Source: Candidatus Woesearchaeota archaeon
Lineage (GTDB): Archaea > Nanobdellota > Nanobdellia > Pacearchaeales > GW2011-AR1
Direction: 5' to 3'
Length of the DNA: 64,000 nt
NCBI GenBank assembly: GCA_964437555.1
Contig: CAYTHI010000001.1
Span: forward strand, 35,149-99,148
A program made the position numbers and the translations under genes. Positions 21,088 through 47,115 of this stretch are shown here, in pieces; position 1 is the first letter of the stretch, and each line of letters begins with the position of its first letter. Under the pieces are notes generated by a model. That model was given only the letters and a program-made list of their open reading frames with translations. It made no database searches and was not told where the DNA came from.

Positions 21088-21466
21088 TTCCTGAATAAAA
21101 TCCTAAACTTGTATTTTCATGAGTAATAACGCTAAAAGGAATAGAAATAGACTCTCCTACCGCAACAGAGTAGCTTTTCTGAAAGACTAATAAATCTGCT
21201 ATATTGCCATTTGCTTCAAGATAAATAATGACTGGAACAGAATATCCGTTTGCAAAAAGCAGGTTTCTTGTTGCGCTTCCCCCTATTGCTATTTTCCCAA
21301 AAGTTAAGGCAGTTGAATTCAAATCAAATCCGCCTGTATTTTCAGTGACCTCAACACTGGCAAAAACTTTCTTAACCTCAACGGGGCGATAAGAAATAAA
21401 AAGAGAAAGTGAGATAATAAAGAGGATTAAAGAAAACCCAAAAAGAAAATAAGCTGCTTTTTTCAT
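21056..21466 (-). CDS. small secreted or membrane protein
   Basis: N-terminal hydrophobic segment. Confidence 0.4.
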   Translation of the reverse strand: MKKAAYFLFGFSLILFIISLSLFISYRPVEVKKVFASVEVTENTGGFDLNSTALTFGKIAIGGSATRNLLFANGYSVPVIIYLEANGNIADLLVFQKSYSVAVGESISIPFSVITHENTSLGFYSGIVDVGVYLEK

Positions 21467-22569
21467 TTTTTAATATTCTTTATCTTTTTTCTTATTATAA
21501 AGATTATTGTAGCAGTCACTATTAATATTGCTGCAATGCTTCCGATAATTATTAATAACAGCATATTAGACTCAAGAATGGCAAGAGTACCGTAAGCAAA
21601 AGATTTTTGCCGTTCATAAGATAAAATAATGCTCGCATTATATCTGCCTTCAAGCTCATCTGTATCTAAAAATCCTTCAATCGTCTTTTTTTCCCAAGGA
21701 TTCAGTATAGCAGAGGGCGTTCTGAAAGTAATGTTTTGAACGCCATTTGTAAGATTAACATCTGCAAAAACTTCTGAAACTTGGCTGTTCCACCCGCTTT
21801 CAATATCTATTAGATATTTCTGAATGCCTTTCTTCTTCAATTCTTTCGTAAAATCAGTTATGTTAACAAATAAAGAGCCGATTCTAAAGCTTTGATTGAG
21901 ATAAAAAATCTCTCCGCCATAATTTACCACTGAACTTGCAAGATAATTATCCGGCTTAAATCCGGTAGTATTAAGATATTTCCTGAAATACCTTTCTTCA
22001 GACGTATTAAGAAAAGCAGATTGAAAATTCATTCTTTCAACTTCATTCATTCCACTATCAAAAAAAAGTATTATCGGGCTAACTTCTATTGACTCTTTTC
22101 CTCTGTTGATAACATGAAGCTCAACAGGTATAACTTCATTAATGTTGCCGTCGCCGACATTTAACTGCACATCAACATATTTTCCCGGATAAGGAACATA
22201 AACATTTACTATCGCCCGAATATTGACAGATGTCGCGATAAACTCGTTCTCTCCCGGAATTTCTCTAACCCCGACAATTAATGTATTTTTTCCTGCTTTC
22301 TCTACTTCTGCCGGCAGGTTAAGAGTTACTTCGAAAGAGCCTCCTCCCCGAAGTTCTCTCTTATTAAGAGTGGCGTATTGCGAAAGGTCGCCTTCAACAT
22401 AAGCTTCTAATTCGCTATCTGGCTCATCGACAATTGCCTCAAATTTAAAAGTATACTGATGATTCGGTTCAAAATTAACTTCAAATTTAGCAGGGCTAAT
22501 TCCTAAGGATGCAGCTGAAATTTTAATAAATAAAACCAAAAGAAAAAATAAAACCACTGCTTTTTTCAT
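21463..22569 (-). CDS. surface protein (signal peptide + C-terminal TM + basic tail)
   Basis: Signal peptide 'MKKAVVLFFLLVLFIKISAASLGISPAKFEV'. C-terminal 'LLLIIIGSIAAILIVTATIIFIIRKKIKNIKK'. Paralogous to 23962..25167 (shared 'VPYPGKY'). Confidence 0.55.
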   Translation of the reverse strand: MKKAVVLFFLLVLFIKISAASLGISPAKFEVNFEPNHQYTFKFEAIVDEPDSELEAYVEGDLSQYATLNKRELRGGGSFEVTLNLPAEVEKAGKNTLIVGVREIPGENEFIATSVNIRAIVNVYVPYPGKYVDVQLNVGDGNINEVIPVELHVINRGKESIEVSPIILFFDSGMNEVERMNFQSAFLNTSEERYFRKYLNTTGFKPDNYLASSVVNYGGEIFYLNQSFRIGSLFVNITDFTKELKKKGIQKYLIDIESGWNSQVSEVFADVNLTNGVQNITFRTPSAILNPWEKKTIEGFLDTDELEGRYNASIILSYERQKSFAYGTLAILESNMLLLIIIGSIAAILIVTATIIFIIRKKIKNIKK

Positions 22570-22754
22570 ATAACAAATTAAAGAAACAAGTTTTTATATC
22601 TTTTCAAAAAGCATCCTTAATATGGCTGCAGCAATAAATTGACTAATAAACTGTATAGCAGATTATATAAATATGATAAAAACAAGTGCAGCAAGCATAA
22701 ATTAATATGTTAAGAACATGCATAAAGAATTCTAAAGTAACATAGAAAGTAAAG

Positions 22755-23423
22755 CTAAAGAGCTGTCACCGTAGCAGTAACGACATCGCCTAACGCTCCT
22801 GTCTGGGAGTTTTCAGGAATAGTAAGATTAAAATCTAATCTTAATAAATCATTTCCTGACTCAAATCTGAACACAGAGCATCCTAAGCCTCCATTCTGCT
22901 GGTAGGCTGTTGTATTGGCCTGAAAGAAGCGATTAAGCCTCAAGCCTTCAGTTCCTCCTGCCACTCCGCTATTGTTTAAGCAAGAATTAGCTTCAACAGC
23001 TGTTAAATTCCACTCATAAACCGGATTGCTTCCGCCTATAAATTCAGACGCATTCTTCCCAACAGATAAATTCAGGCTAACATTAACATTTCCTATATTC
23101 TCCAATCTCAATCCTCCTGCAGTTGTTAATGTCCAGTTTCCGCCTGTAACATTGTCTGTCGCAAATGTAGTCAGGGCAGCAGCGCTTGAAGCAGGATTAA
23201 CTCTTCCCGAGCCCCAGCTTATTGCTCTTGTTGTAAAATTAACATTTGCAAGCGTTTCAACAGTAAGATTTGCCTCTCCTGTTGAAGTGGCAAAAGTCGT
23301 AACTCTACTGACAAGATTAGCAACAGAATAATAAGTAACTCCTGCAGCAATCAAAGAAACAACTACTGCAATCAATGCGAAAACTATTATAACAGAATCA
23401 AAGCTGCTTGATTTATCCGCCAT
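22755..23423 (-). CDS. N-glycosylation-sequon-dense membrane-anchored protein
   Basis: At least 10 N-x-S/T sequons in ~220 aa. N-terminal TM 'VIIVFALIAVVVSLIAAG'. Start set at an internal Met. Confidence 0.45.
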   Translation of the reverse strand: MADKSSSFDSVIIVFALIAVVVSLIAAGVTYYSVANLVSRVTTFATSTGEANLTVETLANVNFTTRAISWGSGRVNPASSAAALTTFATDNVTGGNWTLTTAGGLRLENIGNVNVSLNLSVGKNASEFIGGSNPVYEWNLTAVEANSCLNNSGVAGGTEGLRLNRFFQANTTAYQQNGGLGCSVFRFESGNDLLRLDFNLTIPENSQTGALGDVVTATVTAL

Positions 23424-23616
23424 TTGAACCCTCTTCTGCTTCGCTTGTCTCAACAACAAAATCAATAGTTCCACTGCCTGCCCCGACAACATTCCCTGAA
23501 GTCTTGCCATAAGGAACATTCAGATTCAAAACCTGAAAGCTTACAAATGCTGAAATTGCAGAGAACAGAATAGCAAGAATAAGTAAAGCCAAAACAATTT
23601 TTTGTGTTTTATCCAT
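23413..23616 (-). CDS. small TM protein
   Basis: 'MDKTQKIVLALLILAILFSAISAFVSF'. Confidence 0.35.
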   Translation of the reverse strand: MDKTQKIVLALLILAILFSAISAFVSFQVLNLNVPYGKTSGNVVGAGSGTIDFVVETSEAEEGSNGG

Positions 23617-23961
23617 TCGCTCCTTGTCCATGAATAAAAAGAGCCGAATATTTAAACCTTTCTTCAATAAAACATATTGTTTGATAAAAATAGTTTAATG
23701 GTGATTAGCCAATTTTAGCACTAAAAAGGATTAAATTGAAATTGTAAGCAAACAAATTAATCAGAAAGTTATCTTTTATCTCCGATAGAAATTAATATTA
23801 TCCACTAATTAACTTGAGAAGTATTTAAAGTTCGTATTTTCTATTGCAAGACAGATTTTCTACCTTATTTATGTCAAGAAACATTAAAAAGTTGGTGCAT
23901 TAACTGACTAATCACCAGTTTAATTATTACTGATAGAATAAAACCCTGATTTTATTGCCGG

Positions 23962-25167
23962 CTATTTCCCCTTAACCTTCTTCCTTAGATAAATAAACCA
24001 TAATAAGTTAACCATTATAAGCAGTACAATTACAGCTACAAGAACAATAATCAATGGCTGTGAGAACCTGCCTGAACTTCTGCTTCCTCCAGATGAAATT
24101 ACATAGCCGACACCAACAACATTTATATCATTATCCGAAACTTCAAGCTCTAATTCTCTTTGCTCGGAATTTGCTCCATATTTCAGGAATAATGAAGACT
24201 TGTAAGTGCCTTCCCTAACGCCTTCAGTATCCCAAAACGCAATCATCAGTATTTTACTAAGAGACGGAATATCATAAGTGGCTGACTTAAAATCAGCCAT
24301 CACGGCTCCTTCAGTATTGAACACCTGCATCTGCGCATAAGCTCCGGAAATCTGTTGGCTCCACTTATTCTCAACTAAAATTTCAAATTTGGCTATATCT
24401 CCCAAAGAGAAATCATTTACCTCTACCCCGACAACATCAAGTACCTGATTGCCCAAATTAAACTGCGTTTCAAGAGTAGCAGTAGATTCATCATAAATCA
24501 AAGTCGCGACAGCCCTGTAAGGTCCTGGCGGCGCATCTGATTTCCAAACAGCAACAACATCTCTTCTTTGGCCGCTTGGAATCTCAACTTCATTCGTATT
24601 AATTGTTTCAATCTTTTCATTCAGAGAACTGTATATGTCAATTACAGCCCCAACTCTTACTAAATCAAGCTCGCCTCTGCTTATCACAGGAATAACAAAA
24701 GTAACACTTCCGTCATCGTCAGGCCCGATTACATTAAGAGAAGCCTCGGCATATTTTCCCGGATAAGGAACGAATAAATGTATTTGAGTTGCAACTCCTA
24801 AAGCAGCCCCTATAAAGGCCTGGCTTGTTTCTGCCTTCTTAGGCAGTTGTAATACAACAACTTCCGAAGTATGCAATCCGGGAGACAATCCATTAGGAAT
24901 ATCAACAATATACCTTAATTTCTTTTCTTTGTCTGCGGCTTTCATCGAAAAAGAAACTTCTGAAAGAGAAATGCTTCTGTTTAATTCTCCCTGAACAAAA
25001 ACAACAATATCCATATCCTGATTTTCTGAATTAACCACTGTAAACTCAACTTCTGTCTTTTGTCCGGGTTTGTAATCCAGAACCGTCCTGCCGGGAGTAA
25101 TTCCCAATGCTAAAGCGCCAGAAGACAATAAAACCAGAAGCAAAAGTATAGCCAATAATTTATCCAT
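23962..25167 (-). CDS. surface protein paralog (signal peptide + C-terminal TM anchor)
   Basis: Signal peptide 'MDKLLAILLLLVLLSSGALALGITPG'. C-terminal 'LIIVLVAVIVLLIMVNLLWFIYLRKKVKGK'. Confidence 0.55.
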   Translation of the reverse strand: MDKLLAILLLLVLLSSGALALGITPGRTVLDYKPGQKTEVEFTVVNSENQDMDIVVFVQGELNRSISLSEVSFSMKAADKEKKLRYIVDIPNGLSPGLHTSEVVVLQLPKKAETSQAFIGAALGVATQIHLFVPYPGKYAEASLNVIGPDDDGSVTFVIPVISRGELDLVRVGAVIDIYSSLNEKIETINTNEVEIPSGQRRDVVAVWKSDAPPGPYRAVATLIYDESTATLETQFNLGNQVLDVVGVEVNDFSLGDIAKFEILVENKWSQQISGAYAQMQVFNTEGAVMADFKSATYDIPSLSKILMIAFWDTEGVREGTYKSSLFLKYGANSEQRELELEVSDNDINVVGVGYVISSGGSRSSGRFSQPLIIVLVAVIVLLIMVNLLWFIYLRKKVKGK

Positions 25168-25657
25168 TTTCTCCCCCTATAAATTTAGTTCCTGCAACTT
25201 CCTTGCTTTCATCAACATCAAGAACAATGCTTCCTGTAAGATTTTCATTCTGATAAATATCAACATTAAGCAAGGTGTTTCCTGCATTAACAAGGTCATA
25301 CCTGCTGCCTTCACTTTTCTTCAGCTTCAATGCAACCTCTGAAATGATAGTAAGCTTTCTCACACTGCTTGGCAAAGCTCCCTGAACCTTCCAGTAATAA
25401 GTGCCTGGCTTCAGATTCACTATCAAATTATCTTCAACAAAAATCTCCTGCGGAGAACTAAACTCAAGATTATCATCTATCAGTATTTCATTCGCCTTTT
25501 CAAAACTAAATAGAACCGAATTGTTTGAAGTTGCATAGTCATCAAGAGGAGAGATAACTAATGGGCTTGCATATCCAAACACAAAAACAATCCAGATTAA
25601 TGTTCCGACTATCAAAAGAAAGTCAATTGCCAAGATGTATTTCTTCTCAAATTTCAT
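25160..25657 (-). CDS. N-terminally TM-anchored protein
   Basis: Coupled to neighbours (1-nt gap to the giant gene, 8-nt overlap downstream). Confidence 0.45.
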   Translation of the reverse strand: MKFEKKYILAIDFLLIVGTLIWIVFVFGYASPLVISPLDDYATSNNSVLFSFEKANEILIDDNLEFSSPQEIFVEDNLIVNLKPGTYYWKVQGALPSSVRKLTIISEVALKLKKSEGSRYDLVNAGNTLLNVDIYQNENLTGSIVLDVDESKEVAGTKFIGGENG

Positions 25658-25658
25658 T

Positions 25659-28600
25659 TTATTCTCCCAGACTCCCTGTAAACGTTACAGTGGAGTTTCT
25701 TGCTCCGGCAGCCTCCTGTAAAGGAACAGTTACATTAATGTCAATTTCAGCAGTATCTGTTGCATTTGTATAATTAAGCCGGGCAATTGCCAGAATAGGG
25801 GAAGCAGTAAGAGTAATATTTGTATAAGTAAACTTTGACAATACCCAGTTAAAAGAGCCATTCTCCAAAGTGTAATTATCAATCTTGAATTGATAGTTAG
25901 TGCTCGGATTTGCCTGGCTTCTCCACAAATCAGTTGCTCCTATTGTAACATTCACAAAAGAATTCCCGTCATTCTGGATTAAGAAAGGAAGAGGGGAATT
26001 GTCAGAAGTATCATTGGTTCCAAACTGCGATATCTGCCCAAAATTAATGCTGGAATTAGGCAGGCTCATCTGAATCAATGAAGAAATATTAACTCTGAAG
26101 AAATCTGTCCATGCAGAATAATCCTGCTCGTCATAAGCTCTTATAGACCAGTTATATTGGTAATTATTATCATACAAATACAATAAGTCTCCTGATAGTT
26201 TATGGCTTGTCAAGCCCAATGGAAAAGATATGTGCCTATTATCCTCTCCATATCCGCTGCATCCCCCGCCTAAAATGTTTCTGCATGTTAAATTCAATTC
26301 ATAAAATAATGAATCTCCGTCATCATCGCTGCCGGCAGTCCATACAAAGGTCGGCGTCCTGTCGGTTGTTGAGCTTCCGTCTGCCGGGCTTGACAATGTC
26401 GGAGTTCCTGGAGGTGTATTAATTATAGTAAGATTTGATGAATTTACCCAGTTGCTATACTCCAGGCCATCATATAATCTCATTGAGCAAGTCCAATTAT
26501 GATTTTTAGTAGTATTGCCTGAAAGAAGAGTGGCATTGAAAAAAGAATTATTAGCATAGCTATTATTAAAGTCAACAACAAGATGTGACAAAGAATTATT
26601 AATCCACATGACAGTTACATTAATCCTGTCTCCTTCAGGATCAATTAAAGTGTCAAAGCAATTCAGATTCTCATTTGTCCTGTTTGTTCCAAGAGTTGAA
26701 TTTATCTCCGGAGTGGGGGCTGCTGGGGCATTATTAGAATCCTGGATGCTATAATTGCTAAAGCCGCTTATATTGAATATAACTGTTCCTGCATTTAATG
26801 ATGTGAAATTATAGCAATCATTGCAGATAGCATTGTCCCGATACACTTTAGGATACCTGAAATTGCCCGGCATATTATAGAAAGTGATATTTGCAGTTTT
26901 GTTCAAATGACTGAATATTGTAGAATTTGCAAAAACAAAATTATTCCGTAATTCTGTATTTAGGCTTAGGTTTGTCAAATTAAGGGCAGAAGTTCCTGAA
27001 ATGAATTTTATTTCTCCTCCGGAAGTTGTTCCATTTATTAAAGTAATAGTGATATTATTCCCATAGCTTGAATTCAAGTCGGCAAACTGACCTGAATAAT
27101 TTATTATTAATCTTCCGTGTTTAAAAGTAGGAAAAGCGCTAAGATTAACAGCAATATTAGTAAGATTAATTAATCTTGTATCTTCTATATATGCTAAACC
27201 TCCCTCGCTCGTTGCAGAACCATCCCCTGCACCCATCGCAGCAGATATTTGCTTAGTTACATTTGTATTATAAAGATAAAAAGCTCCTCCTGGCCCTCCT
27301 GATCCTGCTGAAGCAATGCATGTCGCATCGCATATCTCTCCGTTATTCAAAAGCCCCTCTACTTCTGAATCTCTTATTGTAATATTTTTGCCTCCGTTTC
27401 CATTATTGCCTGTATATGTAACACCTATTGAATTGGTAAAGTCAGGAATAAATGTATTTTTTACTGTGAGATTTTCAGCAGGGTCCCGCAATTCAATCCC
27501 ATGAACAGTTCCTATTACGGGCCCTGTATGCTCAATAGTAAATCCCTCTCCTTCTAATGCAATATTTGAGGCATTTACAACCAGGCAGCTTGCTGTTGTA
27601 GATAATGTATTGTTAAGGAAATAGGTCTTTCCTGTTTCATGCAAAGTTGTACAGGCAGAAACAAGAGACACATTAAGACCGAAAGTAACATTAACAGTAA
27701 AATTATTATTGCCCAAAGTGTCATTGGCATAAACTCTGAATACATAAGTTCCTGTTAAAAGAGAATTATTTGAATGCGTAAAAGCAGTTCCAAACTTTCC
27801 TTCATTGCCATTCATTGAAATATTATCTACTCCGTTGTTCATAGAGTATGAAACGCTTCCGTTTTCATCCAAGCTGACATTGAAAGTGAAAGGCAAATCG
27901 CTGAAGGTATAGTTCGCACCCTTAGGGAAGTATACTGTAATATTGGGGGGAGCTGCATCCGCCGGGCTGTAAGTAAGAGTGAAGTTTGAAGTATTGAATG
28001 CCTGATTATGAGGAATTGCATTATCCATAGCAAGAAAATTCCAATAATATGCTCCACTGCCATTAAGCCCGATATTATGCGTAATGTTTCCTACTATGCT
28101 GCTGTTGCCTAATCCTGTAAAGTTCTGTGCTACTAAGTCATTAGTTGAATTGTAAACAAATAATGTTGCATTGCTTACATTAACATCATCGGTAAATAAA
28201 GCTCCGAATGCAGCAATGCCTGTTGTTGTTATAGTATTATTGCTCGGATTTATTAGCATTACTTGAGGAGAAGTCTTATCTGCTGCAGAAGTATCAATTG
28301 TTATATTTGCGAAATAAACATCTGTTGCCTGGTCAGTATAAACAAGCTCCAATTCACTGCTTCCAAGTTGATTGTTAGACGGATAATTGGAACATCTGAC
28401 AGAAGGGAATCTTAATGCTCCTGTATTATCAGAGATCTGCTCTTGAGCAGTGAAAAACCCTGTTGAGGTATATTTTATGTAATCAATAGCTGTATTATTT
28501 TCAAAGACAATATGAGCGTTGTTGTTCGCATCAAGGCATCCCTCGCTATCATTGAAAGTTCCTGCATACGTCGCATTGGAATAAACTATTCCATCACTGC

Positions 28601-31600
28601 TGTTAATCACAACTAAATCCTCGCTTGCCGCATCTATCGCTGTAATCAAAATTGTTGTTCCTCTTATGCTTAAATGCATATTTGAAACAGCTAATCCATA
28701 AGCTATTGTGGTCTGATTTGCTGTAAACGAACCAGAAGAATTAATTACAAGCAAGCTACTTGTGGCAGCATCATCTAAGGCAATATAAACATTTCCATTG
28801 CTGCTCATATCTAAAGAACAGCTTTCAGCAATTCCAGGTCCGCCTGCCGATGCTCGTGTAGTCCATGCCAGAGTAGCACCAAGATTAGTAAACGAAAAAT
28901 CCATGTCAAAATCATCATTATCCATGCTGCAGGCAAGAAACCTGCCGCTTGTTGTAGTGCCGTCAAAAGCAACATCCGGGCGATAATTGTCGTTAGTTCC
29001 TCCGGAAACATCAATGATAGCTCCTGAATTAGCAACATTGCAGTCAGCAGTCACATTGTAAATATAACTTATATCATTCTGACCTCCCGTATCATCAGTA
29101 AACATATAGATAATAGCAGAGCCATTAGTGGCAATAGCCATATCGCTATGAGTTCCAGTTAAAGAATCATAAGTATTCCAATTAACACCTTCATCTGAAG
29201 AATCTGAACAGGAGGCATCACTGCTTGCATCCTGCCACAATGCAATAAGTAAATCGGAATTTAACCTGACTATGTTTTTTCCTGCATTAAATCCGCCAGT
29301 AGTAGTTCCTGTTGCTGTTGTTGATGCGTCCGCATTAATCAGATAGTTAGTTGAAGGGTCAATAATATGGTCAAACTCCACACTGCCTCCTAAAATCCTT
29401 AAGTCAAAACTATCCTGCTCTCCTTCCAATCCTGTAAGAAATACTTTATTATATTCATTATCATTAATGCTTTCAAATTCTGCAATAGTCTTATTTTCAT
29501 TTATTTCATAGACTTCAATCCTCGGACTTCCGTTCACAGCTCTTGGATAAATGCTTATGTCCCTGTCGCTTGTCAAATTCCTCTCAAATTTAACTCTCAC
29601 ATAATGCTCTGCAGGAATAGTTTCACTCCAATTTCCGTCCAGTTTAGAAACTTCAGGATAAATGTCAGAGATAAATGTCCTGTTTGAATCAAGATGCTCT
29701 GCAGAAACAATTTCTATAATTAAATCAAACGTCTGATTGCTCAACTCCGGAATAATCCATTCAGCGTAATCATATATTCCATCTTCATCTAAATCAGAAA
29801 CATTTACAGGAACAACATACGCTTGTTTTTCTTCCCAGTATATTTTTAAATCATCTTTATCAATAAGATTATATGATTCATCTAAATTCGTGAAGGACAA
29901 AACATTCTCATAATGAATTTCATCAGGCCCTATAATCAAAACTTTCTTGCCTATTCGTCCATCAGTTAAATTTTCCTCTATCGCATAAGGAGCAGGAGTA
30001 TAATAACTCACTTTGGCTCCTTTCTCAAACTCGCTTAGCTCAATTAATATTTCTTTTCCTTCTTTTGCTTCTGCTTCTTCAGAAACTGCAAATCCGGTCA
30101 ATCTTAAAATATTTCTAAACCATTTTAAAATTCTGTTTTCCCTGTTCAAACTAAGGTCTGCTGTAACCGCTCCAGTGATTATGCTTCCTGTAATATCAGC
30201 ATTAATGGATTCTGGCTCATTATTAGCGGGCTCTGACACCTCAACATTCTCTTCAACATCGGCAACTTCATCTGTTCCTTCATTATCAAATTCCTTCTCT
30301 ATCTTGTCAATAGAAATATTTTCAGCGATTTCAGGGATAAAAATGCTGAAACTGGCAGGTCCATCAACATTATCAACTTTCTTAACCCATTTAACAGGCT
30401 CGTTAAGCTTTATTTCATCATGAACAAGCTCAACATTTATGGATAAATTAGGCTCAATTGTTTTATTAGGAGAAATTATGCTTTCATTAGAAGTTTTATT
30501 AATGCCAATTTCAGGAACAATTTCCTCATTTTTTTCATCAGATTTATTCAGATTTCCTGAAACTGATATGCCTTGAAATACTTCAACAATTGTTTGTCCT
30601 TCATAAGAAAGCTTAGCAGATAAAACGCCTTCATCAGCCCTAAAATTAAAATCTTCCAAATCAATAATTAAAGTAAGCTTATTATTTCCTAAATATTCTT
30701 TGCCGAATCCTTTTTCCTCTAAATAATAATCAGTTGAAACAATGACTTCATTTCTATTTATATCAACTTTGACATTTTCATCTCCAATTGCCTCTCCATT
30801 CGCAGTTACGCTTCCTGAAATTAATCTTGCACTCTGTCCTTCACTTAGCTCATGCACAAAATCTTGCCCATTAACCGCAGTTCCTGTAATTCCAGATGAA
30901 AATTCAGATATCGCTGCTCCTGTAATTCCCGGAGCAGGGCTTCCACCACCAGATTCACTTCCTCCTCCTGAACTTTCAGAATTACTATCAGAAGTTTCCT
31001 GCTTATTTTCTTCTGAATTTTCTTTAGATTCTGCAGGGGTTTCTTTCTTATCAGCATTCAAATCATCCTGCATCTGGGGCTCATCAATTTTAGAAGAGCC
31101 GCTTCCTGAAGAGCCAGAACCAAATTCTTTTACTATCTCCAATTCAAAACTCACAGAAGGATAAATTTCTCTTATGCCACTTATACCATACCCTTCGCCG
31201 CTTCCTGATAAATCCAAACCTTCCGCATAAAAATCTCCATTAACAGCCTGTTCTGTGATTAAATCTTTCAAAGCAATTTCTCTTTCAATACTATTAAGAC
31301 CAATAAGTACAACAGAATCAACAGGAATAAGTTCCCCCGCTTTCAAATTTAAAATCAAATTGCCTTCTATCTGCTCTCCAAGAACATATCGTGTCTTAAT
31401 ATCAAGCGTTGCATTCCCTGTTAAATTCGCTGAGATGAAAAAGAAAAGTAAGAGAACTCCTAAAACAAAAAAGAAAGCTGCAGGAAAAAGATATTTCTTT
31501 AAATTATTTCTGGATTTTGCATGCCCTAAGTATCTTGTAATTATCTTTCCATCAACTCTTTCTGTTTCATAAAGATATGGGCCAAATCTCTTCCCATTTT

Positions 31601-31625
31601 TATAAGTATATTTTTTATGTACCAC
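25659..31625 (-). CDS. giant (1988-aa) cell-surface protein with N-terminal signal anchor, Gly/Ser linkers, tandem beta-sandwich and beta-helix-like domains, and dense N-glycosylation sequons
   Basis: Basic cytoplasmic N-terminus then TM 'LFPAAFFFVLGVLLLFFFI'. 'GSGSSGSGSS...SGGGSESGGGS' linkers. '...TPTFVWTAGSDDDGDSLFYEL' Ig-like motif. A run of NxT/NxS sequons (e.g. 'NLTNLSLNTELRNNFVFANSTIFSHLNKTANITFYN'). Confidence 0.6.
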   Translation of the reverse strand: MVHKKYTYKNGKRFGPYLYETERVDGKIITRYLGHAKSRNNLKKYLFPAAFFFVLGVLLLFFFISANLTGNATLDIKTRYVLGEQIEGNLILNLKAGELIPVDSVVLIGLNSIEREIALKDLITEQAVNGDFYAEGLDLSGSGEGYGISGIREIYPSVSFELEIVKEFGSGSSGSGSSKIDEPQMQDDLNADKKETPAESKENSEENKQETSDSNSESSGGGSESGGGSPAPGITGAAISEFSSGITGTAVNGQDFVHELSEGQSARLISGSVTANGEAIGDENVKVDINRNEVIVSTDYYLEEKGFGKEYLGNNKLTLIIDLEDFNFRADEGVLSAKLSYEGQTIVEVFQGISVSGNLNKSDEKNEEIVPEIGINKTSNESIISPNKTIEPNLSINVELVHDEIKLNEPVKWVKKVDNVDGPASFSIFIPEIAENISIDKIEKEFDNEGTDEVADVEENVEVSEPANNEPESINADITGSIITGAVTADLSLNRENRILKWFRNILRLTGFAVSEEAEAKEGKEILIELSEFEKGAKVSYYTPAPYAIEENLTDGRIGKKVLIIGPDEIHYENVLSFTNLDESYNLIDKDDLKIYWEEKQAYVVPVNVSDLDEDGIYDYAEWIIPELSNQTFDLIIEIVSAEHLDSNRTFISDIYPEVSKLDGNWSETIPAEHYVRVKFERNLTSDRDISIYPRAVNGSPRIEVYEINENKTIAEFESINDNEYNKVFLTGLEGEQDSFDLRILGGSVEFDHIIDPSTNYLINADASTTATGTTTGGFNAGKNIVRLNSDLLIALWQDASSDASCSDSSDEGVNWNTYDSLTGTHSDMAIATNGSAIIYMFTDDTGGQNDISYIYNVTADCNVANSGAIIDVSGGTNDNYRPDVAFDGTTTSGRFLACSMDNDDFDMDFSFTNLGATLAWTTRASAGGPGIAESCSLDMSSNGNVYIALDDAATSSLLVINSSGSFTANQTTIAYGLAVSNMHLSIRGTTILITAIDAASEDLVVINSSDGIVYSNATYAGTFNDSEGCLDANNNAHIVFENNTAIDYIKYTSTGFFTAQEQISDNTGALRFPSVRCSNYPSNNQLGSSELELVYTDQATDVYFANITIDTSAADKTSPQVMLINPSNNTITTTGIAAFGALFTDDVNVSNATLFVYNSTNDLVAQNFTGLGNSSIVGNITHNIGLNGSGAYYWNFLAMDNAIPHNQAFNTSNFTLTYSPADAAPPNITVYFPKGANYTFSDLPFTFNVSLDENGSVSYSMNNGVDNISMNGNEGKFGTAFTHSNNSLLTGTYVFRVYANDTLGNNNFTVNVTFGLNVSLVSACTTLHETGKTYFLNNTLSTTASCLVVNASNIALEGEGFTIEHTGPVIGTVHGIELRDPAENLTVKNTFIPDFTNSIGVTYTGNNGNGGKNITIRDSEVEGLLNNGEICDATCIASAGSGGPGGAFYLYNTNVTKQISAAMGAGDGSATSEGGLAYIEDTRLINLTNIAVNLSAFPTFKHGRLIINYSGQFADLNSSYGNNITITLINGTTSGGEIKFISGTSALNLTNLSLNTELRNNFVFANSTIFSHLNKTANITFYNMPGNFRYPKVYRDNAICNDCYNFTSLNAGTVIFNISGFSNYSIQDSNNAPAAPTPEINSTLGTNRTNENLNCFDTLIDPEGDRINVTVMWINNSLSHLVVDFNNSYANNSFFNATLLSGNTTKNHNWTCSMRLYDGLEYSNWVNSSNLTIINTPPGTPTLSSPADGSSTTDRTPTFVWTAGSDDDGDSLFYELNLTCRNILGGGCSGYGEDNRHISFPLGLTSHKLSGDLLYLYDNNYQYNWSIRAYDEQDYSAWTDFFRVNISSLIQMSLPNSSINFGQISQFGTNDTSDNSPLPFLIQNDGNSFVNVTIGATDLWRSQANPSTNYQFKIDNYTLENGSFNWVLSKFTYTNITLTASPILAIARLNYTNATDTAEIDINVTVPLQEAAGARNSTVTFTGSLGE

Positions 31626-31734
31626 TATCCCTCTTTTGTAAGAGAACTGCTTTCAGCAGTTCAAATATACTAAAATACTGGTATTTATAAGTATTTCTTT
31701 ATTTTTCCTAAAAATAAATATAAGTTCTCTTACA

Positions 31735-33678
31735 TTATAATCCAACTTGAAATATCCAATTTGCGTCTTCACTGAATCCGCAGGGGTCTATTATTCCTGC
31801 GCTTTCATTATGGATTGTCGTTGCATTGCACGCTCCAAAATAAGACAAGGAGGAAAAGCAGTCTGGGTCTGAATCATCTGTAAACCCATCATAATCATTA
31901 TCCAACCCATCCCTGCATTGAAACAAGCTGGGAGTGGGAATATGTTGGGTTATATCAATATATTTATTATTCCCGAGTGATTTGAAATAAAAAATATTAT
32001 CTTCTTTTCTAACTGTGCTGAAGTTTTTAGATATAAAATTAATTTCTGTAAAATTCCCTATTGGAATCTGTAAAAGCCTCCCGCCCCGCCCTATAAGCCC
32101 GACTTGTCTGAAATTTGGCTGCAAACTTAGGGGAGGAAACCAGTGGCTTAATGTGATTGAATCAAATCCCGCATGCTGTGCAATTGCAATCCCTGATTTT
32201 ATTGAATATCCATAATAATCCTGGCTGAAATTATAAAATGCAGGCGAATATTCTGTTGAGCTTAATCCTTTTCCTGTTATTCCATTATCTCTCCATATTG
32301 CCCTTACAAGATTTGCTATATATTTTCCCTGCTGCGGAAATCCATGATACGTGTGAATATCAAGGTAATCATAATATGCCGAGCCATTAACAGCAACAGC
32401 TTTTAGAAATTCGTAAGTTACTCTTCCTTCCCGGTCTCCTAGAGTTACAATCTTGATTCCGGGGCGGCCATCGCTTGACCTATAATAAAATCCATCAATA
32501 ATATAACTGTCCTCATTAAATCCCGCATAAAGCGCGGCATTATCAACACCTGTTACTCCGAAAGTTAAAACAGGAAGCGATGGAGCAACTTCTTTTACAG
32601 CAAGATAAGAAATATTCATCAAACTTAATATCTGTACCTCTTTATCTGTTCCAAGCGGGCCATAATCGTAGCTGGCATTAACTTCAAATTGATGGCCCCA
32701 CTCATTGCCTATTTGCACCCCAACAAAATAATCTCTGTATACCGGATTGTTGTAATACCTGTCCGTTATGTTTTTTATATAATCTGTCCATTGCTGCTCG
32801 CTTTTCGGATAAGAGTCCGGCTCCTGAAGCCCTATCCCTCCCAAAGTAAATGAGACTGTTGAAAGGTCAGGATGATTTGACCTTACCGTGAGAAGAAATT
32901 TCATATTTGCATTCTTAAAGTTATTGGCTGCCGCATCTAATCCGGTGAAATTGTAGGTTAATGCTGTGCCATTTTGAACATTATACCAGTCTAATATAGA
33001 GCGATGATATTGCACTCCTGTTTGGTTTGTCTGGCTTAACGTAGCTGAAGATGAGCCTACCGAATGAAGTCCCAATACGGGCAGCGGAGTTATGCTTGGA
33101 TTTAGCAAGCCATTTCTTATTCTCGTGCATGTATCTAAATCAAAGTCAGATAGATTAATGATTTTATAGCTGCCGCATGCTCCAACCGGAGGGATATTGC
33201 CGCTGGAAGCCTGTTGCGTGCAAATTGCTTCAAGCCCTGAAAAATCACACAATCCCGAAGATAAAACTCCTGCAACATCAACTGACTCAACTGAAGCACC
33301 CCCTAAATCTAAATCCAAATTAAAATCATAAACTTCAAAGCCAAACTCGCCGGGAAAATTATTTGTTTCTGACAGGATTATGTTTCCGTTAGAAGTCTTA
33401 AATAAAAATTTAATTTCTCTTAGCTGCCCCTGACCTGCTCCTCTGCGAACACCGACTTCAATTCTGTTTCCATCAATAATCAAGTCACAATTCTCAGCTT
33501 TCAAATCCAAATCAAAACAGCTTAGCAGTCTGCCCTGCTCTCCGCTTCCTCCTTCTCCTGTTCCTAAAATCTTAGTTACCGGAGGCTGAACAAAAATCCA
33601 AACAATTGCAATAGCAACAAGTGCAATCAATATCACAAGAACAGTTGTAACAATGCTACTAATTCCTCTTTTTCGCAT
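31735..33678 (-). CDS. secreted protein with archaeal prepilin-like (class III-type) N-terminus and a conserved Cys-containing N-module; C-terminal region carries a glycoside-hydrolase-like 'GNEW' motif (tentative)
   Basis: 'MRKRG|ISSIVTTVLVILIALVAIAIVWIFVQP'. The N-module is homologous to that of 39146..41413. 'VGVQIGNEWGHQF' resembles a GH-A acid/base motif. Confidence 0.5.
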   Translation of the reverse strand: MRKRGISSIVTTVLVILIALVAIAIVWIFVQPPVTKILGTGEGGSGEQGRLLSCFDLDLKAENCDLIIDGNRIEVGVRRGAGQGQLREIKFLFKTSNGNIILSETNNFPGEFGFEVYDFNLDLDLGGASVESVDVAGVLSSGLCDFSGLEAICTQQASSGNIPPVGACGSYKIINLSDFDLDTCTRIRNGLLNPSITPLPVLGLHSVGSSSATLSQTNQTGVQYHRSILDWYNVQNGTALTYNFTGLDAAANNFKNANMKFLLTVRSNHPDLSTVSFTLGGIGLQEPDSYPKSEQQWTDYIKNITDRYYNNPVYRDYFVGVQIGNEWGHQFEVNASYDYGPLGTDKEVQILSLMNISYLAVKEVAPSLPVLTFGVTGVDNAALYAGFNEDSYIIDGFYYRSSDGRPGIKIVTLGDREGRVTYEFLKAVAVNGSAYYDYLDIHTYHGFPQQGKYIANLVRAIWRDNGITGKGLSSTEYSPAFYNFSQDYYGYSIKSGIAIAQHAGFDSITLSHWFPPLSLQPNFRQVGLIGRGGRLLQIPIGNFTEINFISKNFSTVRKEDNIFYFKSLGNNKYIDITQHIPTPSLFQCRDGLDNDYDGFTDDSDPDCFSSLSYFGACNATTIHNESAGIIDPCGFSEDANWIFQVGL

Positions 33679-36255: not shown

Positions 36256-36573
36256 TCAATGTAGCCAATTAATCGCGTGAACTTCTTCACGTCGGGAATC
36301 TCGCCCGCACAAAGCAAATTAATTGCTCACTGGAACTTCTCGCAAGTCGCTCCTGAATTTTATGGCTTAAAATAAATTTCAACAATGCCCTGATTAACTG
36401 GCGTGTAGTCCATCCGGTTTTCTTCTTGTCTTCAGTTGCTCATGCTGAAATCCAGAGAAAGAAAACTTTCTGGGCGAAAAACAGAAGAAAGCTTGCTTTA
36501 AATTTTTTGCGGCGCGCAGTGCGCACATCATCACAAGAAAAAAATCAAACAAAAGCGAGCAAAACAGATTTAC

Positions 36574-37236
36574 TTAATCTGCCGATACCCGAAAAGCAGG
36601 AGCCCCGTCAAGAGGACCCCCGTCGCAGCAGAGGCCAAGCCCGTAGTCGCCGGCGTCGAACCTGACAGCCCTTTTTTCAAGTTGCACTGGTCTTAAACTT
36701 TCTCTCCAAAGATAAAAATCTGTCCCATTAATCCAGTTAGAAACTCTATTAATCTGCTGAATATCTTGTGTTCCAATAATTCTTTTCAAGACTTGCTTAT
36801 CTGGAATTTGAGCAATCCAGTCAACTGGGCCAACAATATTTCCTTTTAAAGCATATTGGTCTGAAACCCCAACATTATGCAAAACAGAGTCTCCTTCCGG
36901 AGAGTAATCTATTCCTGTTGAAGTATTTACCCAATTCCTAAAGGCGGCCCTAAGAACATCTCTAAGTCTCTCGCCTGCTTCAGTTGAACGAAGTTCATAA
37001 CCTCTTTGAGCAATAGCCCATACTTCTTGGGCATTTGCAGGGTAAGGATTTCCTGCCTGTCTTTCTCTCTCATGAAACTCGTTAAGCTGTTCTTGATTCA
37101 TCGCAGGAGTCATATTATCAAAAAGAGAATAAGTCTTTATGGCATCCCTATGAAAAACTCCTGGAACTACAAGTCTGCCTTCATTTCTCCAAGTAGTTAT
37201 ATATGGGGGGACGTATTTAATTCCTATTTCTGCCAT
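36574..37236 (-). CDS. hypothetical protein (220 aa) whose C-terminus is encoded by the GC-rich repeat
   Basis: ORF; composition atypical for the genome (Ala/Arg/Gly/Pro-richer). Confidence 0.45.
   Translation of the reverse strand: MAEIGIKYVPPYITTWRNEGRLVVPGVFHRDAIKTYSLFDNMTPAMNQEQLNEFHERERQAGNPYPANAQEVWAIAQRGYELRSTEAGERLRDVLRAAFRNWVNTSTGIDYSPEGDSVLHNVGVSDQYALKGNIVGPVDWIAQIPDKQVLKRIIGTQDIQQINRVSNWINGTDFYLWRESLRPVQLEKRAVRFDAGDYGLGLCCDGGPLDGAPAFRVSAD
36591..36669. repeat. GC-rich 79-bp direct repeat, copy 2 (forms the 3' coding end of gene 36574..37236)
   Basis: Encodes 'AVRFDAGDYGLGLCCDGGPLDGAPAF' on the minus strand. GC ~65% within a ~33% GC genome. Confidence 0.7.
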
Positions 37237-42980: not shown

Positions 42981-44156
42981 CTACCGCGTCATTATCTCCA
43001 GCCCGTCGCCATTCTTCAGCTTATAATCTTTCCCGACAGCCTTCTTTGTCTTGACATCAATTGCTTTTACAAAGTTATTTCCGATATCAGTATGCAGTCT
43101 ATAAGCAAAATCCAAAGCAGTTGAATTTGGAGGCATTAAAAAGCAATCAGGCAATATATTTCCCTTGCTATCAGACAATTTAGCACCCGCAGGATAAATT
43201 GCGACATATTTCAAAAGCTCAAAAATAGTTTTGTTCAACACGTCTTGCACTCCTGTTGAGCCAAATTCCTTAATTATTTTCTGAATATTGTCAAGCGCAT
43301 TCTTCTGTCCATCGTTTAGCTTCTTAACAACTTCAAATTTATTATCTCCTGGAATATATTCTATAAGCCCTGCCTTATCTGCCTCTCTCAAAGCTAATTC
43401 GCCCTCTGCAAAGCAGGGAATAATAGGATAATCAAATTCCTTTTTAACTCTCTCATAATTATTCTTTCCGTCAGACCTGTCAATTTTATTTGCCGCAATT
43501 ATCATGGGCTTTGTTGTTTTCCTTAATTCCTTGGCAAATTTAATCAAATTATCAGAACTCCATAAGCTTGGCTTTTCAGCATTTAAACCAGTTCTAAGCA
43601 AAACAGACTTAACATCATCTTCTGTTACCTTTAATCCTGAAAATTGCTTTGCAACTGCCTCTGCGAATTTTGATTTCTGCATTTCAACACTTCTTGCAAA
43701 CTTCTCCCATGTTTTTTTTAAAATACCAAGATACCACAAATCCAATTCCTTTTCTACTACTCTTAAATCTTTCCCGGGATAATAATTTTCTGTCGGCTTC
43801 CCTTCACTATCAAGTTCTCCGGACATATCAACAACATGAATAAATGCATCCGCAGAAGCCAAATCATTAAGAAATTCATTCCCTAATCCTTTTCCTTCAG
43901 AAGCCCCTTCAACTAAGCCAGCAACATCCATCAACTCAAATGGCACAAACCTCCAATCTTTCTTTACATAACCCTCACGAGGATTGCTATGCTTCCCGAA
44001 TTCAACAGCTAAATCCTTTATTTTCACATAAGCAATCGCATGATTTGGCTTTATTGTTGCGAATGGATAATTCGCAATTAACACGTCCATGAGCGTTGCC
44101 GCTTTAAAAAACGTTGATTTTCCTGCGTTTGGCTTGCCTAAGATGCCGACTAACAT
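42981..44156 (-). CDS. Obg/DRG/YchF-family GTPase with C-terminal TGS domain
   Basis: 'ILGKPNAGKSTFF' P-loop, 'DVAGL' G3, 'NKID' G4. C-terminal '...GDGLEIMTR' is TGS-like. Confidence 0.75.
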   Translation of the reverse strand: MLVGILGKPNAGKSTFFKAATLMDVLIANYPFATIKPNHAIAYVKIKDLAVEFGKHSNPREGYVKKDWRFVPFELMDVAGLVEGASEGKGLGNEFLNDLASADAFIHVVDMSGELDSEGKPTENYYPGKDLRVVEKELDLWYLGILKKTWEKFARSVEMQKSKFAEAVAKQFSGLKVTEDDVKSVLLRTGLNAEKPSLWSSDNLIKFAKELRKTTKPMIIAANKIDRSDGKNNYERVKKEFDYPIIPCFAEGELALREADKAGLIEYIPGDNKFEVVKKLNDGQKNALDNIQKIIKEFGSTGVQDVLNKTIFELLKYVAIYPAGAKLSDSKGNILPDCFLMPPNSTALDFAYRLHTDIGNNFVKAIDVKTKKAVGKDYKLKNGDGLEIMTR

Positions 44157-44206: not shown

Positions 44207-44695
44207 TCAAAAGAACCAGGCATATCCTTCAATAACAAGCTTAACAAGAACTGCAATCGCAAGGAAAGTGTAAGAATATCGCAGGTATTTGAATTTCTGC
44301 TCTATTATGACTGCCAAAGATTTTGTATTATTAAGGTAATCTGATATGACGTCGTCATTATTCCAACGCTTCATTTTAGTTAATAGTTTATTTGCATCTA
44401 TAGATAAAGTGTCTTTGAAATACAACAAAGAGTTTCTTCCGCTGGCCCTCATAGCTCTAGGATACAAAGTCAGGAATGCAAAATAACCTGAAACAAGAAA
44501 AGGAACAATTACTATAATAATAAGGGGCATTGAAAAAGTCGCAAAAGACCTGAAGAAATTAAAAAACAAGGATAAAATTACTCCAATTAAAACAAGAACA
44601 ATATTTGCCTTAGTATCAGCAAGCCTTATCAAATTCTGATTTTCAGAATAAGCTATTGTTAAATAATCGCTCAATAATTTCATATCAGTTTTCAT
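44207..44695 (-). CDS. 2-TM membrane protein with conserved N-terminal 'ADTKAN' motif (SLATT/2TM-effector-like, tentative)
   Basis: 'LIRLADTKANIVLVLIGVILSLFF' plus a second TM. Confidence 0.35.
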   Translation of the reverse strand: MKTDMKLLSDYLTIAYSENQNLIRLADTKANIVLVLIGVILSLFFNFFRSFATFSMPLIIIVIVPFLVSGYFAFLTLYPRAMRASGRNSLLYFKDTLSIDANKLLTKMKRWNNDDVISDYLNNTKSLAVIIEQKFKYLRYSYTFLAIAVLVKLVIEGYAWFF

Positions 44696-45028: not shown

Positions 45029-45038
45029 AAACTTTATA
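45029..45038 (+). promoter_or_regulatory. TATA-like box upstream of tRNA-Ile
   Basis: 'ctttatatat' lies at about -35..-26 relative to tRNA position 1 (45064). Confidence 0.3.
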
Positions 45039-45063
45039 TATGCTCTCCCTTTGATTTTATAAC

Positions 45064-45218
45064 GAGCCCATAGCTCAGCCCGGTTAGAGCACTGCTCTTA
45101 TAAGAGTGCGTCTCGCCAGAGACGTATCATTCGGCCTCTTAGGAGGTTGATGTTCAAGGAACCTAGGTTCCTTAACTAGGAAAGGCAGGGGTCCCAGGTT
45201 CAAATCCTGGTGGGCTCA
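45064..45218 (+). tRNA. tRNA-Ile (anticodon UAU) with ~80-nt intron at canonical 37/38 position
   Basis: Manual cloverleaf: acceptor GAGCCCA/TGGGCTC, D-arm GCTC...GAGC, anticodon stem CTGCT/GGCAG (one G-U pair), loop CTTATA^[intron 45103..45182]A, T-arm CCAGG-TTCAAAT-CCTGG, discriminator A. Confidence 0.6.
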
Positions 45219-45233
45219 TGTAATCATTAGGAT

Positions 45234-45575
45234 TTGAAAATGAATCAAATAGCACTTGATAATAGATTAACATATTTTGATATACCGCAAAAAGCAACAA
45301 ACATCGCAAGGTTAGTTGGGCTTATTTATATAGTAAGCACGATTTATTCACATAACCCTTTAGAAAATCAATTTGCAAATATATTAACTACAACAGCCGC
45401 AGCATTTGCAGCTTATTCCAGATTAGGCGTGAAAGCCGTGTTGGATATTTCAGGAGAAGCAGCAGGCATTTTAGTGGAAAAAAGCATAACCGGAACAAAC
45501 AGGGCAATAGAATCAATGCAAAACCTGGGAAGAACACTCATCAGAGGAACAATAATCCTTGAAGATTTAGTTTAA
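45234..45575 (+). CDS. hypothetical protein
   Basis: ORF only. Confidence 0.35.
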   Translation: MKMNQIALDNRLTYFDIPQKATNIARLVGLIYIVSTIYSHNPLENQFANILTTTAAAFAAYSRLGVKAVLDISGEAAGILVEKSITGTNRAIESMQNLGRTLIRGTIILEDLV

Positions 45576-45639
45576 TAATTATTTGTAAAGCAAATTCTCC
45601 GTGTAACGCGGGCTCATTATACATAATTTTTATTATTAG

Positions 45640-45960
45640 CTATGCACTTCCCAACAATCTCTTTCTCATAAAGTCTCGCCCCGAGGGGAGTGAATCTTAA
45701 GCGCAGGTCTTCCAACTCAACTAATTCTAATTGAACTAAGTGTCCAATTGCTACTGGATCAAATAAAGCAGGATGATACACAATAGATGCAGGATTAAAA
45801 TCTTATAATAAGGCCATCAAGCTTCTTTCAGAATCACTAAACATGTTATGGCTTCTTCTTTCTTTATGCACCACTTCAAAAAGATCCGGAGCTTTGCTTC
45901 TGTTATGTGCGGGCTCCTGCCCATTTTGCCCATTATGAATCATTGCAACCTTGAAATACA
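45640..45960 (-). pseudogene. possible frameshifted gene remnant downstream of the methyltransferase gene
   Basis: Two adjacent coding-like segments in different frames ('MIHNGQNGQEPAHNRSKAPDLFEVVHKERRSHNMF...' and 'DFNPASIVYHPALFDPVAIGHLVQLELVELEDLRLRFTPLGARLYEKEIVGK'), neither with a normal start/stop structure. Locally GC-richer. Confidence 0.25.
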
Positions 45961-45990
45961 GAATAGCGTATTTATATAATTATAGATAAA

Positions 45991-46947
45991 TCATTTCCTG
46001 CAGATATAAAGAGCATATTCTTTTCCTAAATCCTTTAATTGTTCTATGTCAGAGAAATATAAATCAAAAAATTCCTTCCATTCATTCTCAAAATATTTAT
46101 ATTGGCAGCCAACAATAACCTGGTCTCCTTTCTTAAAATTAATTTCATAGCGCTTATGATTTACTTTCTTATTCTTTTTTAGAATAAATCCGAATTCAAG
46201 CCTGCCATTCCTGAACCTTGGGGCATATCCAACTTCTGATTCTTTGAATCCGAGGCCTCTCATTACATGAATAAACCAATCATTAAACAGCTTGTGTTTA
46301 TACTTATCAAGCTCTACAAACCTTTCCCCTACTCTGTAGCCATTTCCAATAATAATCATATCGGACTTCCACATAGGGTCAGATAAATTATAGAGCAATT
46401 CGCTGACTTCATAGTGAGAAATAGTCTCTCCAAGGAACAAAATTACATTTCTCTGATAGTGCGGGCTTCTAACCATTCCGATTATATTTTCAAAATCCTT
46501 AAAATCAGAAAGAATCGGCTTTACTTCTATTTTTCTCGTCCTGCCAAGCTTCCTAACCTCGCCTTCTGCCTTCCTAAGAAAAAATTTACTGACATCGACA
46601 GGACAGTATCTTATCTTCACATTTTCAGGAATAGTTTTTATGAAAGCTGCTGCCTTCTTTCCATTTCCGCATCCCAAGTCAATTAAATTAAAGGGCTCAC
46701 TGCCAACATTTTTAGCTATCGTTTTCGCATTTTGATTAATAAGGTCAAATTCCGTATCTATGACCTTCATCCTATAAGGAAAATAATTCTCCAAATTGAG
46801 AAAACCTTCAGACAATTCAGGCGTGATGTACCAAACCTTAGACTCTGACATATCCCATACCTTATTCTCATTGGCAAGAGAATATCCTCTCTTAACTAAT
46901 TCTCTGAAGATTGAGTTGTCAATTTTCACAAAATTCTTAACATACAA
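45991..46947 (-). CDS. class I SAM-dependent methyltransferase (EgtD-like fold, tentative)
   Basis: Motif I 'LIDLGCGNGKKAAAF'. Length 318 aa. Confidence 0.55.
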   Translation of the reverse strand: MYVKNFVKIDNSIFRELVKRGYSLANENKVWDMSESKVWYITPELSEGFLNLENYFPYRMKVIDTEFDLINQNAKTIAKNVGSEPFNLIDLGCGNGKKAAAFIKTIPENVKIRYCPVDVSKFFLRKAEGEVRKLGRTRKIEVKPILSDFKDFENIIGMVRSPHYQRNVILFLGETISHYEVSELLYNLSDPMWKSDMIIIGNGYRVGERFVELDKYKHKLFNDWFIHVMRGLGFKESEVGYAPRFRNGRLEFGFILKKNKKVNHKRYEINFKKGDQVIVGCQYKYFENEWKEFFDLYFSDIEQLKDLGKEYALYICRK

Positions 46948-47042
46948 TCATTTTTATGTCTTGCTATTTCTCATTCATCCCAAGTCAATAGTAACTAAAA
47001 TAGGAAGGTTTAAAAGTAAATTTTTTTTAGTCACATTATTAA

Positions 47043-47115
47043 GCCCGAATAGTCTAGAGGCCAAGGACAGCGCCCTTTCGCGGCGCAAACCCGGGTTCGA
47101 ATCCCGGTTCGGGCA
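47043..47115 (+). tRNA. tRNA-Glu (anticodon UUC)
   Basis: Cloverleaf: GCCCGAA...TTCGGGC acceptor, anticodon loop CTTTCGC, T-arm CCGGG-TTCGAAT-CCCGG. Confidence 0.85.

Follow-up and report, generated by a model that had tools for sequence, protein, structure and literature searches.

The closest described counterparts of the tRNA gene reported here come from the ARMAN lineages, in which ARMAN-2, -4 and -5 possess a tRNA-Ile(UAU) that carries an intron at position 37/38 and have lost both tRNA-Ile(CAU) and TiaS (Fujishima et al. 2011, PMC3239211). The pre-tRNA-Ile(UAU) of ARMAN-2 (Ca. Micrarchaeum), whose intron measures 25 nt, is cleaved in vitro by the epsilon2 endonuclease (PMC3239211), and DPANN endonucleases carry inserts and loops that have been linked to broad substrate specificity (PMC5829648). 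A UAU anticodon was further reported for two of 167 archaeal genomes, those of Korarchaeum cryptofilum and Nanoarchaeum equitans, where it is treated as a rare, species-specific ‘gain’ (PMC6000648). Roles of tRNA introns beyond their removal are known from other systems: the intron of yeast tRNA-Ile(UAU) is needed for Pus1-dependent formation of pseudouridine at positions 34 and 36 and blocks ncm5U34, and the intron of Haloferax volcanii tRNA-Trp encodes a box C/D guide RNA (PMC11408192).

In the window, i.e. the whole stretch of 64,000 nt of DNA analysed here, positions 45064..45218 (+) encode, with a probability that we put at about 90%, the precursor of an AUA-decoding tRNA-Ile(UAU) that is predicted to be spliced via a bulge-helix-bulge (BHB) motif and belongs to a DPANN archaeon of the Pacearchaeota/Nanoarchaeota type. 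The tRNA family model RF00005 aligns end to end (model positions 1-71) at 52.6 bits, with a gathering threshold of 29 and E = 1.9e-8 for the whole window, and the alignment contains an 81-nt insertion after A37 that corresponds to 80 intron nucleotides plus nucleotide 38. ARAGORN missed the gene at default settings because its intron search was off; with intron search the program returned identical coordinates and an 80-nt intron. The original prediction of a tRNA-Ile(UAU) gene at 45064-45218, which named a covariance-model score as one check, is thus borne out with respect to both the score and the ends of the gene.

The 5′ exon (45064..45102, +) covers tRNA positions 1-37, comprising the 5′ strand of the acceptor stem, the D arm, the 5′ strand of the anticodon stem and C32 U33 U34 A35 U36 A37, as delimited by the Rfam alignment, by our BHB scan and by the same exon in a close relative. 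Positions 38-73 lie in the 3′ exon (45183..45218, +), which provides A38, the 3′ strand GGCAG of the anticodon stem, a 5-nt variable loop (GGGUC), the T arm, the 3′ strand of the acceptor stem and the discriminator A73; CCA is not encoded at the 3′ end of the gene. The spliced tRNA is 75 nt long and every stem is intact. It carries U8, A14, G18 G19, U33, G53 U54 U55 C56, A58 and C61, which are the invariant or semi-invariant positions of tRNAs. Upstream, a TATA-box-like element, TTTATATA, can be read from the sequence at 45033..45040 (+), centred approximately 27 nt from the 5′ end of the tRNA; its composition and spacing presumably fit the archaeal TATA consensus.

An in-house scan for BHB geometries compatible with a 7-nt anticodon loop gave a single canonical solution, in which the 5-bp anticodon stem serves as outer helix and a central helix of 4 bp is flanked by two 3-nt bulges on opposite strands. 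The 5′ half of the motif (45097..45103, +) consists of CUUA (45097-45100) and the bulge U36 A37 A (45101-45103), and the 3′ half (45177..45183, +) of UAGG (45177-45180) and the bulge AAA (45181-45183), the last A being nucleotide 38. Cuts are predicted at 45102/45103 and 45182/45183 and delimit an 80-nt intron (45103..45182, +) at the canonical position 37/38, in agreement with the Rfam insertion and the intron length returned by ARAGORN. Its removal joins CUCUUAUA to AGGCAGGG at the predicted junction and produces the anticodon loop CUUAUAA, with the anticodon UAU (T-A-T in DNA) in positions 34-36 (45099..45101, +). Since each of the two sites lies next to A's, moving the junction by 1 nt in either direction would leave the mature RNA unchanged. 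The spliced product is identical in 75 of 75 positions to that of its closest relative among the matches listed (L003, Pacearchaeota UBA92), and 90.7% identical to an intronless homologue (L080) that shares its anticodon arm, CTGCT-CTTATAA-GGCAG. Hence, the TAT anticodon at positions 34-36 and the intron after position 37 that had been assigned by eye both stand, the approximate intron length of 80 nt turned out to be exact, and the BHB search that had been suggested as a further check led to the same anticodon.

The precursor folds with a minimum free energy of -66.8 kcal/mol (z = -4.8 compared to shuffled controls). In the unconstrained minimum free energy fold the anticodon stem is not formed; a fold constrained to cloverleaf and BHB reaches -66.3 kcal/mol and is thus separated from it by a gap of 0.5 kcal/mol. 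Of the inner helix (h′), a single G:C pair is present, which is unformed in the constrained fold, whereas a strict hBHBh′ motif has at least 2 bp in this helix. The geometry is that of a relaxed BHB, which is common in the tRNA-Ile(UAU) family and consistent with the endonuclease types of DPANN archaea. When 13 long introns of the family were analysed with RNAalifold, the anticodon stem and the central helix were recovered in the consensus. Within the intron, the BHB scan gave no convincing internal motif that would indicate a second, nested intron.

The distribution of the gene was addressed with a pattern scan for the D arm and the CUUAUA loop across contigs of one genome per species, which yielded at least 120 loci, nearly all of those listed belonging to DPANN (Woese-, Pace-, Nano-, Micr-, Iain- and Aenigmatarchaeota as well as Parvarchaeum). 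From the matches listed 102 genes were parsed; 23 of them lack an intron and 79 contain one, at position 37/38 in every case (79/79). The central helix is complete in 62 of these 79 homologues and has three of four pairs in a further 16, and the inner helix h′ is reduced to 0-1 bp in 23. Among the genes listed for Woese-, Pace- and Nanoarchaeota (NCBI labels), 53 of 54 contain an intron, with a median length of 47 nt and quartiles of 42.5 to 54.5 nt; five of the 54 introns measure 80 nt or more, and introns of up to 115 and 238 nt occur among the species-genome matches listed. A tRNA-Ile(UAU) interrupted at 37/38 by an intron is therefore the rule in DPANN of the Pacearchaeota/Nanoarchaeota type, and the gene in the window is a typical member of a kind that is already known. 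Two statements of the original prediction have to be qualified in this light. A genomically encoded UAU is rare among the classically studied archaea (2/167; PMC6000648) but the norm in DPANN; of the genes listed for Woese-, Pace- and Nanoarchaeota, 53 of 54 carry the intron as well. Likewise, the intron is long in the sense that it exceeds the 47-nt median and falls in the upper tail, but it is matched by other introns of at least 80 nt (5/54 listed), by 13 other introns of 80-88 nt (see below) and exceeded by introns of up to 238 nt. An encoded UAU thus emerges as the general way in which DPANN decode AUA, and no longer as an oddity limited to two or three organisms.

The same scan touched some genomes with other labels. 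Among bacteria, a Clostridiales MAG and members of the CPR (WWE3, Saccharibacteria and Parcubacteria) have intronless tRNA genes with a CUUAUA loop (loci L009, L024, L045, L058 and L088), and these lineages may also decode AUA with UAU. Six loci from species-representative MAGs that bear the label ‘bacterium’, Omnitrophota, Methanosarcinales or Methanobacteriota (L022, L026, L023, L033, L040 and L030) match the scan pattern. Three of them, L022, L026 and L030, hold intron-containing tRNA-Ile(UAU) genes of the DPANN type with introns of 46, 48 and 36 nt, respectively, and parsing of L023, L033 and L040 recovered no clear tRNA-Ile(UAU) gene. These matches point to contigs that were mis-binned or genomes that were mislabelled.

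Compared with the described systems, the gene in the window shares with ARMAN-2 the DPANN affiliation, the UAU anticodon and an intron at 37/38 embedded in a BHB, and for ARMAN-2 the genome context implies that AUA is decoded without TiaS; genes from Micrarchaeota are among the matches of the D-arm/anticodon-loop pattern scan. The two differ in that the 25-nt intron of ARMAN-2 forms a strict hBHBh′ motif with demonstrated cleavage, whereas the 80-nt intron in the window is predicted to feature a three-hairpin multiloop in place of h′. An encoded UAU is also shared with N. equitans and K. cryptofilum, and the Korarchaeum gene has an intron too (PMC6000648). In contrast to the species-specific ‘gains’ assumed for these two organisms, the gene in the window is one member of a conserved and very large family in DPANN. 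In eukaryotes, tRNA-Ile(UAU) likewise reads with UAU; its intron, also located at 37/38, pairs with the anticodon and is retained throughout the lineage. Its splice sites are defined by a ruler mechanism, however, and by a BHB in the window gene; the link between intron and modification is established for yeast.

In the fold of the intron (45103..45182), three hairpins are observed. Hairpin 1 (hp1; 45106..45127, +) has a 9-bp stem and the 4-nt loop GCCA with a closing C:G pair; it is the part of the intron that is conserved and covaries across the family, and occurs in short and long introns alike. Hairpin 2 (hp2; 45131..45150, +), with an 8-bp stem and the loop UUAG, is found in long introns of 80-88 nt only, as is hairpin 3 (hp3; 45152..45176, +), which contains the perfect 18-nt palindrome AAGGAACCTAGGTTCCTT at 45156-45173. 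When metagenomes were scanned for the junction between exon and intron in the window subtype, CTCTTATA in the exon followed by AGAG in the intron, at least 108 unique introns were returned. Besides that of the window, 13 further unique introns of 80-88 nt are among the matches listed, and each of them, folded separately, forms these three hairpins as well. The variation in hp3 consists mainly of double transitions from G-C to A-U. The intron of the closest relative is 71% identical to that of the window, beside exons that are 100% identical.

What is new here is that hp1 is conserved with strong covariation across the tRNA-Ile(UAU) intron family. In 111 sequences of the same register, 92% of the hp1 cells pair as compared to 70% in shuffles, and 277 cells are changed on both sides as compared to 72, a number that none of 500 shuffles reached; slid registers gave 34-53% pairing. 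These 111 rows had been picked by eye, and the test was rerun without selection on every unique intron that measured 40 nt or more, where a perfect hairpin of at least 7 bp within the first 30 nt was present in 71% of 151 introns and in 4.5% of shuffles. Across the family, the G in intron position 2 is invariant, and the A in position 3, the C:G closing pair and the A at the end of the loop are conserved to at least 90%; the loop follows a near-invariant RNYA pattern while the stem covaries freely. This hairpin is missing from the introns that other tRNAs, mainly tRNA-Glu, have in these loci, and the Micrarchaeota genes listed have either shorter, simple hairpins without the hp1 module or no intron.

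Stable hairpins in the intron are most simply explained as a scaffold, which would prevent wrong pairing between the exons and a long intron rich in A+U and draw the ends of the intron together. The conservation of the hp1 loop and the bases flanking it exceeds the needs of such a scaffold. Based on this conservation pattern and on the intron being present in 53 of 54 of the listed Woese-, Pace- and Nanoarchaeota genomes, and by analogy with yeast, we consider a more active role, speculative and on the whole rather unlikely: hp1 could support an intron-dependent maturation of the anticodon, either by recruiting or positioning a modifier of U34/U36 or by blocking a wrong modification of U34, such that UAU would read AUA but not AUG. 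Such a step would correspond, in archaea, to the intron- and Pus1-dependent pseudouridylation of the eukaryotic tRNA-Ile(UAU), and make the intron more than a passive insertion. In any case, hp1 provides an experimental lead on how archaeal tRNA-Ile(UAU) avoids misreading AUG.

Other functions of the intron were evaluated as well. Like the tRNA-Trp intron of H. volcanii, which has a role beyond its removal, the intron in the window is long, structured and in canonical position; unlike the former, it has no pair of C and D boxes (RUGAUGA/CUGA), CUGA being absent from the intron altogether, and the best Rfam match to a C/D family is on the opposite strand (23.7 bits compared to a threshold of 35). 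The free covariation of the hp1 stem argues against a sequence-specific guide role. No known RNA family in Rfam (C/D, H/ACA or other) matches the intron at threshold. A group I intron is excluded by size, 80 nt compared to a core of approximately 200 nt or more, and gave no Rfam match. A K-turn at the BHB was not found on reading the sequence, as position -7 is C and not part of the required GA. Three further candidates were rejected. An ‘exon mimic’, CUCUUAG, that would pair with the 3′ end of the intron instead of the BHB has a complement of at least six of seven nucleotides in 45% of introns and in 35% of shuffles, and the proposed pairing does not covary consistently. The palindrome of hp3 as a dispersed repeat or binding site was dismissed, since it occurs as a single copy in the window and its exact degenerate pattern is missing from other loci. 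Finally, an ORF of nine codons within the intron (ATG at 45150 to TAG at 45178, preceded by GGAGG) is attributed to chance; it is unconserved, and the closest relative has no ATG there. Separately, the 238-nt intron of a tRNA-Ile(UAU) gene from a Nanoarchaeota MAG (L086, 2610..2765) owes its length to a tandem duplication of 67 nt that is perfect (2.3 copies at 100% match). Introns of 115 nt (L068) and 136 nt (L239) share with it a GCTGGAT...AAAACCCGCAG(G)AGGTTTT module, possibly a small element for which the tRNA-Ile(UAU) intron is a site of insertion or expansion.

The assignment as tRNA-Ile(UAU) has to be weighed against the output of ARAGORN with intron search (-i), which reads the locus as tRNA-Ser(tga) with a non-canonical intron after position 34 (45100..45179) and the loop CUUGAAA. 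The original prediction had named a differing intron placement by a tRNA finder as evidence against UAU, and in formal terms this is such a case; judged by BHB, variable loop and homologues, however, it is an artefact. Tran­sfer RNAs for serine belong to class II with its long variable arm, whereas the variable loop is 5 nt here (GGGUC) and the discriminator is A73, and therefore the tRNA body is not that of a class II Ser tRNA. In addition, the cuts implied by ARAGORN land within the 4-bp central helix and outside the bulges, and the homologues without an intron show the CTTATAA loop directly. Over all fetched loci, ARAGORN assigns Ile(tat) to 167 members of the family and Ser(tga) to only 32 that contain an intron, and the Ser call is therefore a recurrent error of intron placement; on a few members the program put other labels (Tyr, Pro, Ala, Asn, Thr or Leu). 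Taken together, the BHB motif, the short variable loop, the intronless homologues and the label counts across the family leave a tRNA-Ser(UGA) gene barely conceivable, and this reading was rejected. The practical consequence is a pitfall: missed by default and in part mislabelled as Ser(UGA) with intron search, such genes can lead to false calls of a ‘missing tRNA-Ile’ or an ‘extra tRNA-Ser’ in DPANN genomes, and annotations made with ARAGORN in this way would be wrong for tRNA-Ile(UAU). For the tRNA-Ile(UAU) assignment itself, isoleucine identity, with putative charging by IleRS, is presumed from the anticodon and from A73, A37, A38, C4-G69 and U12-A23, features present in the tRNA body that correspond to Ile identity elements from studies in E. 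coli. Comparing isotypes by similarity across 241 fetched loci involved just two Ile(gat) calls, both of them dubious 84-nt predictions, and thus no genuine tRNA-Ile(GAU) comparator.

Even with the anticodon settled, the locus could in principle be a tRNA pseudogene, in decay or without function, from which the long insertion is never removed, given that the inner helix of the BHB is almost missing and the intron is unusually long within the family. A weak h′ is likewise seen in the 23 of 79 listed family members mentioned above, however, and 13 further unique long introns retain the same plan. All stems and invariant nucleotides of the tRNA are intact, and the exons have stayed identical to those of the closest relative although the introns diverged to 71%. 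Furthermore, among the Ile codons AUA is used most, and the window contains no second AUA decoder. Taken as a whole, these points make a pseudogene very improbable. In the 15 annotated genes of the window AUA accounts for 257 of 529 Ile codons (49%; 40 per 1000 codons), and therefore its decoder is expected to be a heavily used, essential tRNA. A different question is whether a functional tRNA-Ile(UAU) is the sole decoder or a redundant, supplementary one in a genome that also keeps TiaS and tRNA-Ile(CAU). Neither of the latter is encoded within the 64-kb window, which is a part of the genome only and hence uninformative in this respect, and a literature search on TiaS, agmatidine or tRNA introns in Woese- and Pacearchaeota returned nothing specific. 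We regard redundancy as quite unlikely: the ARMAN lineages have neither TiaS nor tRNA-Ile(CAU) (PMC3239211), an argument by analogy only, and the near-universal retention of the UAU gene among the Woese-, Pace- and Nanoarchaeota matches listed fits an essential sole decoder. By the same analogy with ARMAN, it is plausible that the UAU tRNA replaces the TiaS/agmatidine system. The commonest Ile codon of this organism would then be read by an encoded UAU anticodon, not by agmatidine-modified CAU.

For the preferred reading, a functional precursor of an AUA-decoding tRNA-Ile(UAU), we infer the following route of maturation. The precursor would probably be transcribed from the TATA box approximately 27 nt upstream and adopt the cloverleaf, in which the anticodon loop and the two ends of the intron make up the BHB motif. 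The archaeal splicing endonuclease is predicted to cleave in both 3-nt bulges, after 45102 and 45182, and ligation of the exons followed by CCA addition would complete the product with its 75 encoded nucleotides and the loop CUUAUAA. The three-hairpin multiloop presumably takes the place of the nearly absent inner helix h′, which implies that cleavage probably relies on a broad-specificity endonuclease of the DPANN type. Charging with isoleucine and the modification state of U34 would be the final parts of this route. Genes for a splicing endonuclease and for RtcB were sought, and neither is located within the 64-kb window.

Judged by its sequence, the window originates from a DPANN archaeon of the Pacearchaeota/Nanoarchaeota type. 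The neighbouring gene for an Obg/YchF-type GTPase (42981..44156, -) shows 73-79% identity to proteins from Pacearchaeota/Nanoarchaeota MAGs, and the G+C content of the window is 36%. The window encodes HisRS, PheRS alpha and beta, Rpo7, gyrase A, gyrase B with an intein, Kae1/TsaD and ScpA, a gene set that fits a small archaeal genome, and three further tRNAs (Glu-UUC, His-GUG and Trp-CCA). Kae1/TsaD (16572..17558, -; E = 1.3e-74) is the catalytic subunit for the formation of t6A37, and A37 of the tRNA-Ile is an expected substrate.

A number of minor observations concern other parts of the window. The gyrase B gene (8248..10593, -) is split by its intein, with an Intein_splicing domain at residues 442-581. 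Six consecutive ORFs on the same strand (21463..33678, -), among them ORFs of 1988 and 647 aa, gave zero Pfam matches. A full-length match to RT-16 RNA (RF03019) was found at 36256..36460 (-) with 78.3 bits compared to a gathering threshold of 50. The RT-16 motif is named after its association with reverse transcriptases; the adjoining 220-aa ORF (36574..37236, -) had no Pfam hit, no reverse transcriptase domain was detected nearby, and a literature search on RT-16 was unproductive. Between the GTPase and the tRNA gene lies a gene for PycTM, a Pycsar effector transmembrane protein (44207..44695, -; E = 7.7e-11), with no obvious cyclase gene adjoining. The GTPase gene is also present in identical form on a short Logan contig (SRR12113430), where the GTPase-PycTM pair recurs. 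Lastly, tRNA-Ile(UAU) and tRNA-Glu(UUC) are often linked: 86 such pairs were counted in 214 fetched loci, 69 of the 86 on the same strand, with tRNA-Glu at a median distance of approximately 0.6 kb downstream. In the window, tRNA-Glu(UUC) is located 1.8 kb downstream of tRNA-Ile(UAU), the pair spanning 45064..47115.
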